The notes: generated by a model not told the origin, from the sequence alone. DNA of 64,000 nucleotides from an uncultured beta proteobacterium (GCA_963820965.1 CAWGCC010000027.1:71270-135269), one strand, 5' to 3'. Counted from the stretch's first letter, positions 223-18,203 are shown. Program-made: numbers and translations.

Positions 223-510
223 CTACTTAACCGGTTCGATCTTCGTCACCGTGTAGATACCGCCGATCTTGTCGGCCTGGAACCTGATCCTGTCGCCCGT
301 CTTGACTTGGTCGAGCATCGCCGGGTCCTTCACCCGGAACACCATCGTCATCGAATCCATGTTCAGGTCCGGGATCGGGCCATGGTTGATCGTAAGCTTC
401 TTCGCCTCCTTGTCCACGCGGCGGATCTCGCCGTCGGCGAAGGTCTGGGCGAGCGTGGAGGGGGCGAAAACGAGGATCGCCGCAGCCAGCGAAAAAAGCG
501 CTTGTCTCAT
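223..510 (-). CDS. CusF-family periplasmic copper-binding protein
   Basis: Intact 95-aa ORF. Signal peptide MRQALFSLAAAILVFAPSTLA. Motif INHGPIPDLNMDSMTMVF matches the CusF metal-site region (H..PI....M/W..MTM.F). Confidence 0.8.
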   Translation of the reverse strand: MRQALFSLAAAILVFAPSTLAQTFADGEIRRVDKEAKKLTINHGPIPDLNMDSMTMVFRVKDPAMLDQVKTGDRIRFQADKIGGIYTVTKIEPVK

Positions 511-1014
511 CGTCGAGCTCCTATTTCGAAATGACCTTGGTCCTCGGTTCAGCCGACATTCCGAATCATTACCGATGACTGATATGACGGACCATTTGCA
601 AGTCCGCTCGCACCCGCGCGCGCAATAAAGTTCTATGGCTGGATCTCCACTGAAAAACCTGTTTCCGAACGGTCTTTGCCAGGCGACAAACCGGCGCGAG
701 TCTGCCGTGTGGCGTCAGGCTAGACGTTCGCCGCTGCAAAAATGGCCGGCTGCTCTGCAAGTGGCGCGGCGGCTGGAGCACGGGGCCGCGAACGCCAGAA
801 GGCAAAGCGCCTTGCGGCGAGGCGGGGCGGCGCAACCTCAAGGCGTGGCACGCGCGGCTGGCAAGAGCGAACCGATCCGGATGAATCAGCACGGTTGCCA
901 TTGCAGAGGTCGCAAGGCCAAACGCGCTTTCATCGGGCTCGTCATTCCGCTTCGATGACGGTATTGCTGACGGTATCTCGCCCTTAGAGCAGACCATATG
1001 ATGGCGCTCGCTGA

Positions 1015-13962: not shown

Positions 13963-16900
13963 CCTCGCTGCTGACCAGGTCCTCGGCCGGTGCCGCGGGT
14001 GTGGGCGGCACGGCGATGACGCCCGCGACCGGCGCGGTTGGCGCCGAGAACACGTTCTCCAGCACGCCGTTGGCGTCCTGGTAGACGGCCCTGACGCGCA
14101 GCGCCAGACCATCGAGATCCGCGGTCACCCTGAAGCTCGTACCGTCCGCGGTCGCCGGCTGGTTGCCGCCCACGTCGACGATGTCCCGGAAGACCCCCGC
14201 GCCCCTGACCGGATCCGGTTCGTACTGCCAGACGTAGCTGACGGGCCGTCCGGTGATCGCTCCCGTACCCGGATTGTCGGCATCGATGATGTCCGCCGCC
14301 GACACGGTCAGCAACTGGTTCACGGCCGGCGTGTCGTCGCTGATGGTCAGCGAGCCCACCGGCTCATTGTTGATGCCGGGCACCAGGACGACCGCCTGAT
14401 CGGCGAACTGCAGCCGCTCGATGTTCCGCAGCGTGTCGGTGCCGTCGGTGCCGGCATTGGTGCCGACGTTGTCCGTGACGACGGTGGTGCCGTCGAGCGC
14501 CGGTGATGACCGTGTAGTTGGCGCGCGGCCCGGAGAACATGGCGGTGTCGAAGTCGGTGCTGTCCGACGTCAGGATCTCGCGCACGATGCTGAGCTGGCT
14601 GGGATTGATCGTCGCCGGAAAGCATGTACGGCACGAGCTCTTTCATGCTGTCGACTGTTGTGGGCGTCCGGGTGACCGCGTGCTGACGGCGATGCGCACG
14701 TTCAACCAGGCGTCGCCGTCGATGATGTCATCGCCGCCGCGGCCCTCGATGATGTCGCTGCCGTCGCCGCCGAGGATGATGTTGCCGGCGCCGAACGAGG
14801 TCATGCCGGCAGGGAGCAGACGCCTGCAGACCGTTGATGAGGGCGATGTTGGTGAGCACGCTGCCGGTCCAGCCGGCCTGCAGCGATTTCGGTCGCGTCG
14901 GCATCGTCGCCGCGCAGTACGTCGGCGAAGGCCGATCCCGACAGGCCTTCGGTGAACGCGAACCGATCGAAGATGCCGGCGTTCGACGGCGCCACCGGCG
15001 GTTCGATGAAGTCGTTGACGATCATGTCGACGGTCACGCCGAACCGATCGAACTTGTAGCTGGCCCAGTCGAAACCGGAGCCGCCGTCGAAATGGTCCTC
15101 GCCGTCGGAGCCGGTGAATATGTCGTCACCGCCTTCGCCGATGAGTTCATCGAATCCGCCGCCGGAGATCATGACGTCGTTGCCGATGATGCTGTCCTGC
15201 GCGAGCGGGTCGAAACTGTCGCCGGTGGTGCCGTCCTGGGTTCCCAGCTCGATCCAGTCGTGGCCTTCGTTGCCGAAGGTCGGCAGGTTGGTCTTGCTGC
15301 CGAGGATGAAGTCGTCCCCCTGGCCGGCGAAGACCTCCGAAACGTCCTCGCCGGTGACGATGAAGTCGTTGCCGTCGCCGCCGATGATCAGATTGGCGCC
15401 GTTGCCGCCATGAATGACGTCGTTGCCCTCGTTGCCCTTGAGCACGTCGTCGCCGCCGCGGTCCGTGATGATGTCGTCGCCCGCACCGCCTTCGACGTTG
15501 TCGTTGCCGTCGCCGCCTTCGAGCCGGTCATTGCCGCCGTCGCCCCAGATCGTGTCGTCGCCGATGCTGGAGATGATGGTGTCGTTGCCGTCGGTGCCGC
15601 CGAGCACGACGTGATCTCCGCCGGTGTACTGGAGGTAGTTCGTATCGACGCCCGGCGTGGCGGGGTTGTTCGCGGATCACCAGCGGGATGAGGTCGGTGC
15701 CGCCCTCGGTCGGATCGTCGTTGCCATCGCCGAGACCGGTGAACTGGTTGGCCGGGTTGACCTCGAGGATGAAGCCCGGCGTCGAGAAGATGTCGGCCGG
15801 GAGATGCGTCGTGTCGGTGTTGAGCATCACCAGCTTGGCGAACGAGTTGTTCTCCATCTCGGTGAGGAAGTTGAGCCCCGCAAGGCGCGACAGGTAGTAG
15901 AAACGATCACCGTTCTGCAGCGCCTCCATCTGGGTCTCGAAGACGAAGTTGAAGGTCGAGCCGAGCATGCCGCCGAAGGGCATCTGCTTCTCGGCCAGGC
16001 CGCCGATCCACAGGTCGATGGCATCGACGCCGGTCGTGGTCACGCCGTGCCGCGGTGTTCGCATAGGCGCCGGTGCTGTTCAGGAAGGCGAGACGGTCCA
16101 CGTCGTCCGCGGTGAAGGTCCTCTCGTCCGGGGTACCCGCGTTGATGACCGCGCTGCCGCCGAAGACGAGGGCGGCGGCGACTGCCCGCTTCTCCGCGAG
16201 CGTGTCGACATCGGCGGCCGTGAGCTCGTCATGCGTGCCATAGGCGGCGATGAAGTTGATGACCGACGCCTCGTGCTTCAGGTGTTGCGTGAGGTCGACC
16301 CAGCTCGTGTAGGGCTTGAGCTGGGGGTCGCCGGTCATTTCGTAGAACTCGCGGCGTGCCGCGTTGAGCGTCGGAATGCCGGTATCGCGGCCGCGCGCGA
16401 TGTTGATCGCGGCGAGGTCGAGCGGCAGGCCGAGCAAGCTGTTGCGCACCGCGTCGGTGACGAACTCGTCGATCTCGTTGCCCTGCTGCCGGGTCATGCC
16501 GCGCACGATGGCGCCGGCCGCTTCCTCGGGGGTCAGCGTGCCGTTCTCATTGAACTCGATCGGGTTGAGGAAGGCATCGATCAGCGTGATGTCGTTCGGC
16601 ACGAAGTTGGGGTCCAGCCGGTCCACCGACTCGGTCAGCATCGAGTGGCCGACGCGGAAGACTGCGTGCGCGAACTCGGCGACGATCGCCGGATTGATCG
16701 AGGTGTCGTAGTTGGTTTCGGCAAGGAATTCGTCGACTGCCGGCTGCATCTTGCGTGCGAACTCTTCGAACACGAGGTGCTGATACTGCATCTCGGTCGC
16801 GAAGCGGGCCGCCTGGAAGATGCGTTCGCCGTTCCACGCGCCGTCGGCAAGCTGCCATGAGGCGATGAAGGCGGCATCGCCGGTGGCCAGAATCGTCGCC

Positions 16901-18203
16901 TTGATTTCGTCGGCCTGGCGGTTGTGCTCGGAGTGGAACACGTGGTGGACGGCGGTCAGGGCGATGTTCTCGTTGCCACGGCCGTCGCCGGTGATGAAGT
17001 GCCGGTCGAGCAGCTCGTTGTCGTAGGTGCCCGGCTCCGAGAGTCCGACGGCGGCGTCGCTGTCCGGCGCCAGCAGCGCCGGCGACGAACACCGGGGCCG
17101 CGGCATGCGCGATGTCGTTGAGGAAGGCGTGGCCGGTGCGAACGCCGAGACTCGCATCGATCGGCGCACCCGGCGTGCCCGAGGCGAGCCCATCGCCATC
17201 CGGATCCAATGGACCGCCCACTTGGGAGGCTTGCAGCACGATCTGCGCGAAGCCGGTGACAGGATCGGGGATGAACTTGCCGTATGCGTCGGTCGCCAGC
17301 AGCGGCAGGTCGAGGACGTCGGCATCGTCGAGCTGGATGCCGAGCATGGCCAAGGCCTGCGCCTTGACATCGGCCCAGGTGGTGAGCCCGCCGTCGGCGC
17401 CATCGAGCAGCCTGCCGGTGGCGACCGGCTGGCCGGCCGCGTTGAGCTCGTATTCCCGCAGGAACACCTGGTGCGAGGGATGCGAGGTGTAGGTCTGGTT
17501 CTGGTCGACGAAGGGTGTCGTCTGGTTGGTGTGCTCGGTGCCGGTGGGGGTGGCCCGCGTCAGCACCATGAAGTTGGTGGGGCTGCCTTCGACGTAGAGC
17601 GGATCGTCCGGCTGCAGCGGAATGAAGATCGTTTCGTTGCCGCCCTTGTTGACGAGGTCGAGGCCGTGATCGAAGAACTGGCCGAAGAACGTGAACCACG
17701 AGTTGAACGGCGCCGAGAGACCTTCGTCGGGCGCCACGTTCGGAATGGCCAGAAGCGTGCCGAGAGGAATGGGATTGCCATCGAGATCCAGCAGGGCACC
17801 ATCGGATTCGCGTATGGTGCCCAGCCCGGCCTCGACGAAGGCACTGCACGGCCGCCGGGTTGTTGCTGGTCATGTCGACGACCAGATTGCTGATGAGGCG
17901 CGGGTCCGCATCGGCCACGTTGCCGGGGGCGCCGTAGTCCGTGTTGGTGACCGGGCCGAACGTGTCGCCGTCGGCATCATCCCGGTATACCGGGTCGACC
18001 AGTCGCGGAAACAGATTGTCCGCTGCGCCGAACTCGGTCTGGCCCGGCATCAGGTTGTTGAACGACCCATCGACCGTCCGCAGGCCCAAGGGCACGAACG
18101 TGTTCGGGACCAAGCTCGCCAGGTCCGCTCCCGCTGCGTGCGCTTCCGATATGTGGATCTGCTGGAGGATGAATTCGAGGTCGGATCTGATCAGTGTGGC
18201 CAT
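13963..18203 (-). repeat. Tandem duplication unit A inside the RTX gene (peroxidase 1 + RTX block 1 + linker + Ig-like domain)
   Basis: By-eye alignment of 16231-16530 against 11848-12147 gives 265/300 identical bases with no gaps. The offset is 4383 nt, which is divisible by 3. Domain order is repeated in unit B. Confidence 0.8.

Follow-up and report, generated by a model that had tools for sequence, protein, structure and literature searches.

The assembled genome of an uncultured betaproteobacterium contains a copy, frameshifted as assembled, of a conserved gene cluster that joins a MopA-like RTX peroxidase and type I export genes to a multicopper oxidase and SCO1: a candidate Mn(II)-oxidation island

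We analyzed a stretch of 64,000 nucleotides from an uncultured beta proteobacterium (GCA_963820965.1 CAWGCC010000027.1:71270-135269), in the following referred to as the window, and found a block of seven genes at positions 223-18203, all on the minus strand. In this block the gene for a giant MopA-like repeats-in-toxin (RTX) haem peroxidase and those for components of a type I secretion system (T1SS) stand together with the genes for a multicopper oxidase (MCO) and a SCO1/SenC copper chaperone. We consider the block to be, probably, one copy of a conserved and horizontally mobile cluster of two modules that encodes two extracytoplasmic oxidases, most likely acting on Mn(II), and whose numerous frameshifts are artefacts of the assembly.

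It is an unsolved problem why Mn-oxidizing bacteria maintain several oxidases that are unrelated to one another; Leptothrix discophora SS-1 reportedly possesses two genes for each class. The published record on this point is one of co-occurrence at the level of genomes, with McoA and MopA found together in 181 of them (bioRxiv 10.1101/2022.11.10.515945). In the searchable literature we found no description of a physical linkage of both oxidase classes with T1SS and SCO1 genes; the components described here are members of known families, and their conserved joint cluster is a new organizational variant. The conserved physical linkage of both oxidase classes with genes for export and metallation suggests joint action, and with Variovorax saccharolyticus, Hydrogenophaga sp. 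2FB and Ramlibacter species there are cultured carriers in which genetic tests can be made.

Genes were called from a listing of open reading frames (ORFs) and from Pfam and NCBIfam scans, in some cases after repair of the reading frame. A preliminary description of this DNA had named the families in the order peroxidase, small ORF, MCO, SCO1, ATP-binding cassette (ABC) transporter, HlyD-type adaptor and CusF, all on the minus strand, and each of them was recovered in this arrangement. Its count of eight genes has to be corrected to seven, the number that its own list contained.

The peroxidase begins at position 18203, as had been proposed, and this start coincides with residue 1 of annotated homologues. 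In the repaired protein Pfam detects An_peroxidase with 447 bits over two modules and HemolysinCabind with 261 bits in 11 matched stretches. The protein is an internal duplication, its modules (amino acids 1-1400 and 1420-2860, each of approximately 1,400 residues) being 63.5% identical, and both modules contain the motifs FGQFFDHG and R[FV]GHS, which we take to be the distal- and proximal-histidine motifs of the peroxidase family. The sequence further shows 28 GGxGxD repeats and a C-terminal tail of the T1SS type; by eye, there is no signal peptide in the N-terminus (MATLIRSDLEF), and genes for a T1SS ABC protein and adaptor are adjacent. Module 2 is up to 86% identical to its counterparts in clusters from Comamonadaceae, and all similarity that was found is to proteins annotated as 'peroxidase family protein', so that the likeness to MopA is one of architecture and not of direct sequence comparison. 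The MopA/AhpL peroxidases of Aurantimonas manganoxydans SI85-9A1, Pseudomonas putida GB-1 (PputGB1_3353) and Roseobacter sp. AzwK-3b combine two animal-haem-peroxidase domains with haemolysin-type calcium-binding repeats in the same manner as the protein from the window (PMC9765421; bioRxiv 10.1101/2022.11.10.515945). They are of comparable size, with 3,608 amino acids reported for AhpL and 3,628 here, and are likewise devoid of a signal peptide while secretion is expected. Note that two differences exist: the coding sequence in the window is interrupted by frameshifts as assembled, and it adjoins the MCO-SCO1 pair, whereas the locus tags of mopA and mcoA in P. putida GB-1 are far apart.

Of the two T1SS proteins of the block, the ABC protein finds its best family match in TIGR01842 with both of its fragments, and the HlyD adaptor scores above the cut-off of TIGR01843. 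The former has no peptidase domain and is 80% identical to a protein from Variovorax saccharolyticus, and the latter aligns in a single frame and is 71% identical to its Variovorax counterpart. As stated in the preliminary description, the block holds no TolC-like gene, and the only outer-membrane factor of the window, an OEP-family gene at 42285-43748, belongs to a resistance-nodulation-division (RND) operon. With this factor as a probe of limited sensitivity, no outer-membrane factor linked to the relatives of the peroxidase and T1SS was found either, and such a factor was rejected as a conserved member of the cluster. Secretion systems of this type usually rely on an unlinked TolC.

The second oxidase, a three-domain MCO with Pfam matches to Cu-oxidase_2 and Cu-oxidase_3, carries a twin-arginine translocation (Tat) signal at its N-terminus (MSKEF...GRRTLLK...). 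Its copper ligands (H108/H110, H172/H174, H444/H447/H449, H502-C503-H504, H508 and M513) are invariant in an alignment of 13 sequences, and so are the four copper motifs HLH, HDH, HPIHIH and HCHNLIHEDHAMM. It is one member of a large group of related proteins, approximately 590 amino acids long and exported via Tat, some of which have been named 'bilirubin oxidase', and in a search of the PDB its nearest solved relatives were bilirubin oxidase and CotA, with CueO ranked far below. SCO1 is encoded directly downstream at a distance of 42 nt (4981 to 4938), and its product shows the motif CDGIC with a downstream histidine (QHTG) as well as a twin-arginine-like N-terminus, STRRTILAG.

Synteny was surveyed at 77 loci with MCO relatives from species-representative genomes (568 such relatives were found), and the 10-kb flanks of each locus were probed with the proteins of the window. 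At 64 of the 77 loci SCO1 is the immediate downstream neighbor of the MCO. The 10 kb around the MCO contain a MopA-like peroxidase in 18 cases, which come from Comamonadaceae, Nitrosomonas, Methylococcales and Thiobacillus and show several different gene orders, and a T1SS ABC gene in nine. The comparison of related genomes that the preliminary description had proposed thus confirms a core of peroxidase/T1SS and MCO/SCO1, shared by many unrelated genomes, but does not extend to CusF. The order peroxidase, small ORF, ABC, HlyD, MCO, SCO1 was observed in Hydrogenophaga sp. 2FB, a Comamonas metagenome-assembled genome (MAG), Ramlibacter montanisoli, Ramlibacter sp. PS3R-8 and Variovorax saccharolyticus, and parts of this arrangement are also present on four shorter contigs. 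All genes are intact in L017 and L060, the two Comamonadaceae-type loci with ORFs listed. The Comamonadaceae clusters (Variovorax saccharolyticus J22R187, Hydrogenophaga sp. 2FB, Ramlibacter montanisoli) comprise the same six gene families as the window, with identities of 73-84% for ABC and 65-76% for HlyD, but there the MCO-SCO1 pair follows HlyD, whereas here it is inserted before ABC. In Thiobacillus the order is MCO, SCO1, peroxidase, ABC, HlyD, and in many Nitrosomonas loci the peroxidase is 3-8 kb away from the MCO. The gene order in the window is a further permutation of these same parts.

The small ORF, for which no Pfam, NCBIfam or PHROG match was obtained, sits after the peroxidase in the window and between peroxidase and ABC in the Comamonadaceae clusters, and a counterpart at the same position was found in L017, L021, L024, L025, L034, L037 and L060. 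In loci from Nitrosomonas (L042, L043, L055-L059, L062, L069 and L072) and from Methylococcales and a gammaproteobacterial MAG (L049 and L080), the peroxidase and the MCO-SCO1 pair are often separated by the above 3-8 kb, with both orientations represented, and no T1SS ABC gene was detected in the flanks of these loci.

The closest relative of the MCO, with 82% identity, is encoded in a MAG from the Methylococcaceae, where a 3,859-amino-acid two-domain RTX peroxidase is followed by the MCO and then by SCO1. In the MCO tree, the proteins from the window and from Methylococcaceae are sister to the Comamonadaceae clade, and the members of the clade are linked to a peroxidase or T1SS wherever the flanks permit a view, with L053 as the exception. 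As the peroxidase, ABC and HlyD proteins of the window are nearest to Comamonadaceae, while its MCO is nearest to a methanotroph, the cluster is a mosaic. The first 20 kb have a G+C content of 61-66%, as opposed to 68-73% in the remainder of the window (20000-64000), in agreement with a horizontally acquired island that runs past the left end of the window. A megablast search against plasmids returned only partial matches to the peroxidase, with 75-83% identity, and the window consequently does not derive from a known plasmid.

The mosaic origin also speaks for a different reading, in which the peroxidase/T1SS and MCO/SCO1 modules are functionally independent and come together only as co-travellers on mobile DNA; the order of the modules indeed varies between lineages, and each of them is common alone. 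We nevertheless regard such independence as improbable, given that 18 of 77 MCO loci, from several taxonomic orders and in diverse arrangements, have a peroxidase at a distance of no more than 10 kb, compared to approximately 1% by chance, an uncomputed estimate for a rare family. When genes come to lie side by side repeatedly and independently, this usually points to selection for their linkage.

The alphaproteobacterial plasmid clusters of Paracoccus versutus pTAV3 and Phyllobacterium zundukense, with the order peroxidase, hypothetical protein, T1SS ABC, cadherin-like protein, HlyD, show the first module by itself. Their RTX peroxidase is 50-60% identical to that of the window over most aligned segments and comes with a dedicated PrtD-type ABC protein and HlyD adaptor, as it does here. 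Unlike the two-module protein of the window, however, it consists of a single module of 2,100-2,400 amino acids, MCO and SCO1 are absent, a cadherin-like gene is added, and the ORF at the position equivalent to that of the small ORF bears no similarity to it. At L001 (9664-12369) and L002 (11868-13982) the gene between ABC and HlyD is annotated 'cadherin-like domain-containing protein', and a two-component system stands beside the peroxidase in the alphaproteobacterial clusters; the window contains neither.

The seventh gene of the block, CusF, follows the HlyD gene after a gap of 504 nt. The histidine and two methionine residues of its product presumably correspond to the ligands of E. coli CusF, as judged by eye from an alignment with the E. 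coli protein. Among the 77 loci, a nearby CusF homologue was found only in L024, plus a weak one in L029, and CusF was therefore rejected as a conserved member of the cluster. The copper handling that had been ascribed to the block thus holds for SCO1, with its 64 of 77 loci, but not for CusF, and beyond SCO1 it amounts to a mere neighboring gene. The presence of CusF next to an MCO and a SCO protein could be taken to indicate a copper-resistance island, in which an oxidase of the CueO/CopA type would be joined by CusF and a copper chaperone. Against the NCBIfam model for CueO (NF008205), however, the MCO reaches 123 bits where the cut-off is 525, the cut-offs for PhsA and FtsP are likewise far from being reached, and bilirubin oxidase and CotA are the nearer structures. 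CusF, moreover, is missing from nearly all related loci, and the block contains no genes for CusABC or a CopA ATPase. The preliminary description had allowed that the MCO might group with the copper-resistance enzymes CopA and CueO; it does not, and we hold a copper-resistance island to be very improbable and essentially refuted by the family scores.

The MCO is rather a likely member of the McoA family. In P. putida GB-1, mcoA is followed by SCO1/SenC, and this pair alone is conserved between strains (PMC11409713), just as MCO and SCO1 form the conserved unit in our census. Related MCO-SCO1 pairs are abundant in Pseudomonas, including the Mn oxidizer P. resinovorans MO-1 with eight reported mcoA homologues (PMC5854784), which supplies four of the MCO-SCO1 loci analyzed. 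Both the match to the mcoA-SCO1 pairing of GB-1 and the abundance of the family in MO-1 argue for this assignment. In the GB-1 operon a GGDEF/EAL gene follows downstream, and this gene was sought in the Pseudomonas loci to single out the orthologue, but none of them carried it. Four paralogous pairs per genome are found in P. taiwanensis xwS3 (L007/L039/L054/L074), Metapseudomonas resinovorans MO-1 (L008/L045/L046/L073) and Pseudomonas sp. GCM10022186 (L005/L015/L031/L038).

From these data we propose the following mode of action. In the first module, the giant MopA-type peroxidase would be exported unfolded in a single step by its dedicated PrtD-type ABC protein and HlyD adaptor together with a recruited TolC-family channel encoded elsewhere, and it would fold outside the cell upon binding of Ca2+. 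In the second, the McoA-like three-domain MCO would be exported in its folded state via the Tat pathway and receive its copper from the SCO1/SenC protein encoded directly downstream. The two oxidases would then act on an extracellular substrate, one in an H2O2- or superoxide-dependent and the other in an O2-dependent reaction, while CusF would be a neighbor only. If MopA and McoA from P. putida GB-1 are taken as models, the substrate is most likely Mn(II), the best candidate because genetics has established its oxidation, and no other function, for both families in Proteobacteria.

Several observations weigh against this proposal. MopA is without activity in wild-type GB-1 (PMC11930936), and Ramlibacter lithotrophicus, a relative of two of the carriers, fails to oxidize Mn(II) alone (PMC9040806). 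The structural relatives of the MCO have broad substrate ranges, and the pairing of an MCO with SCO1 is also found in the iodide oxidase cluster ioxA-F of Iodidimonas and Roseovarius, so that the genomic context leaves the substrate unfixed. As far as can be judged from its description, that cluster resembles the one in the window in having an extracellular MCO of about 62 kDa beside SCO1/SenC homologues, but it has no peroxidase, and the secretion genes next to it are of type II, not of type I (PMC9415286). The modules also occur apart, as peroxidase and T1SS without an MCO on the alphaproteobacterial plasmids and as MCO-SCO1 pairs in Pseudomonas that, unlike the pair in the window, have no peroxidase or T1SS within 10 kb. 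Finally, scans of the region 1-19.2 kb for sigma-70 promoters and intrinsic terminators returned counts equal to those in shuffled sequence. Being at chance level, they say nothing on transcription units, and co-transcription can only be inferred; a lone sigma-70-like match just upstream of the intergenic region that precedes the peroxidase gene (18463-18434) is of a kind no commoner in the block than in shuffled sequence.

A functional cluster with a substrate other than Mn(II) has to be considered, be it organic or phenolic compounds, halides such as iodide, the cross-linking of matrix or sheath, or the handling of reactive oxygen species. Bilirubin oxidase and the CotA laccase as nearest solved relatives of the MCO, the similar size and neighborhood of IoxA and the inactivity of MopA in wild-type GB-1 are in line with it, and among the carriers are nitrifiers and methanotrophs not known as Mn oxidizers. 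We see this as a possibility to be taken seriously, if not the one we favor, for oxidation of Mn(II) is the only genetically supported function in Proteobacteria both for a peroxidase of this architecture and for the MCO-SCO1 pair (PMC11409713, PMC9765421), and several copies of the family reside in the Mn oxidizer P. resinovorans MO-1 (PMC5854784).

More speculatively, and with a rather low probability, the peroxidase/T1SS and MCO/SCO1 modules could form a single cooperative extracellular machine for Mn(II) oxidation that has spread horizontally among Comamonadaceae, Nitrosomonas, Thiobacillus and methanotrophs. One of the enzymes might supply Mn(III), or it might consume or produce reactive oxygen species that the other one needs. 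If this were true, it would provide a genetic basis for the maintenance of several Mn oxidases in one bacterium, and also for the formation of Mn oxides in nitrifying and methane-oxidizing systems.

Independent of the substrate, the state of the genes raises the question of whether the cluster is intact. Frameshifts were mapped with a frame plot based on G+C at third codon positions (GC3), by tblastn with intact homologues, and then by frameshift-aware protein-to-DNA alignment. This resulted in approximately 50 events, mostly single-base insertions, that are confined to about 2.9-18.9 kb (Table 1). Their density peaks in the peroxidase gene with one event per approximately 250 bp and is lower across 2.9-7.3 kb, and several of them are paired at a distance of 25-65 nt. 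In 38 of the approximately 43 events in the peroxidase, one extra base is present. The sequence contexts are mostly non-homopolymeric and without a common motif, and the events are not overrepresented at short motifs, CTGCAG and GATC among them. After repair, the frameshift-aware alignment contained no in-frame stops. Note that a random substitution would produce a stop in about 2.2% of cases, and if at least 200 substitutions had accompanied the indels, the probability of observing none would be approximately 0.01. The local codon bias is fully retained. The affected zone has sharp edges and crosses genes on both strands, and all genes examined at 19-64 kb are intact, the aceE product aligning with its relatives over 100% of its length. 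As the nearest relatives of aceE are metagenome sequences and Burkholderiales MAGs, with identities of no more than 92%, the source is probably a MAG from an uncultured Burkholderiales bacterium, and a strain-variable island of lower G+C content within a MAG is a plausible site for a drop in consensus quality.

Alternatively, the block could be a genuinely decayed pseudogene cluster, a horizontally acquired segment of lower G+C content under relaxed selection. In keeping with this, most genes of the cluster and the adjacent SRAP gene are frameshifted, the G+C content is below that of the surroundings, and the public record holds a truncated MCO of 522 amino acids that lacks the signal peptide. 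Natural gene decay in bacteria is deletion-biased, however, whereas the events in the peroxidase are predominantly insertions, and no nonsense codon, large deletion or insertion sequence was seen in the broken genes. The mostly non-homopolymeric contexts, the abrupt limits of a zone that crosses genes on both strands and the fully preserved local codon bias likewise stand against decay, which we rate as rather unlikely. The bias for insertions, the contexts, the lack of stops, the sharp-edged zone and the MAG-like source all argue for local consensus errors, in our judgment the more likely explanation. With assembly errors as the most likely cause, the organism itself probably has an intact cluster; as its genes are frameshifted in the assembly, the island should not be called functional in this genome on the present sequence. 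For users of this genome a word of caution applies, as about 16 kb riddled with single-base insertions lead to gene calls that are truncated or missing.

Table 1. Features of the gene block and its right-hand edge, with the frameshift events assigned to each (window coordinates).
Feature	Position	Strand	Description and basis	Frameshift events
MopA-like RTX animal-haem peroxidase	7322..18203	-	3,628 codons after frame repair; tblastn frame map, frameshift-aware alignment, Pfam	about 43
Small conserved ORF	6856..7221	-	121 aa, intact; Variovorax saccharolyticus counterpart 51-53% identical	0
Three-domain MCO with Tat signal	4981..6770	-	approximately 595 aa after repair; frames, Tat motif GRRTLLK, copper ligands	1, near 6634, parting the Tat signal from the 522-aa body
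SCO1/SenC copper chaperone	4308..4938	-	209 aa after repair; PF02630 with 59.5 bits after repair	1, near 4647, perhaps 2
PrtD-type T1SS ABC permease/ATPase	2447..4131	-	560 aa after repair; TIGR01842 best family, both halves	2, near 3264 and 2966, both +1
HlyD-family T1SS adaptor	1015..2352	-	445 aa, intact; TIGR01843 with 313 bits (cut-off 209)	0
CusF-like periplasmic Cu(I)-binding protein	223..510	-	95 aa, signal peptide; Pfam CusF_Ec with 99 bits	0
Intergenic region upstream of peroxidase	18204..18434	.	divergent from SRAP gene; expected promoter site	
SRAP gene	18435..19001	+		at least 2

The SRAP gene (SOS-response-associated peptidase, YedK-like) is divergent from the peroxidase gene and marks the right edge of the error-rich zone; its conserved stretch LIPANCYYEWKEMPVGKGPYCIRMADSSPFF lies in a different frame from the remainder. 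A search of the window against Rfam gave no match. Further to the right, the flanking region 19119-35239 consists of ordinary, intact chromosomal genes, among them those for a Ser/Thr protein kinase (19119-21503), a PAS-GAF-GGDEF-EAL protein (23959-26649), an Lrp/AsnC regulator, pyruvate dehydrogenase E1 (28524-31187), a DUF3500 protein and the ethanolamine ammonia-lyase eutBC (32650-35239). At 36996-43748, a gene for a TetR-family repressor is divergent from the RND efflux operon, which comprises an adaptor gene at approximately 37570-39079, a pump of 1,067 amino acids (39089-42292) and the OEP-family outer-membrane factor mentioned above.

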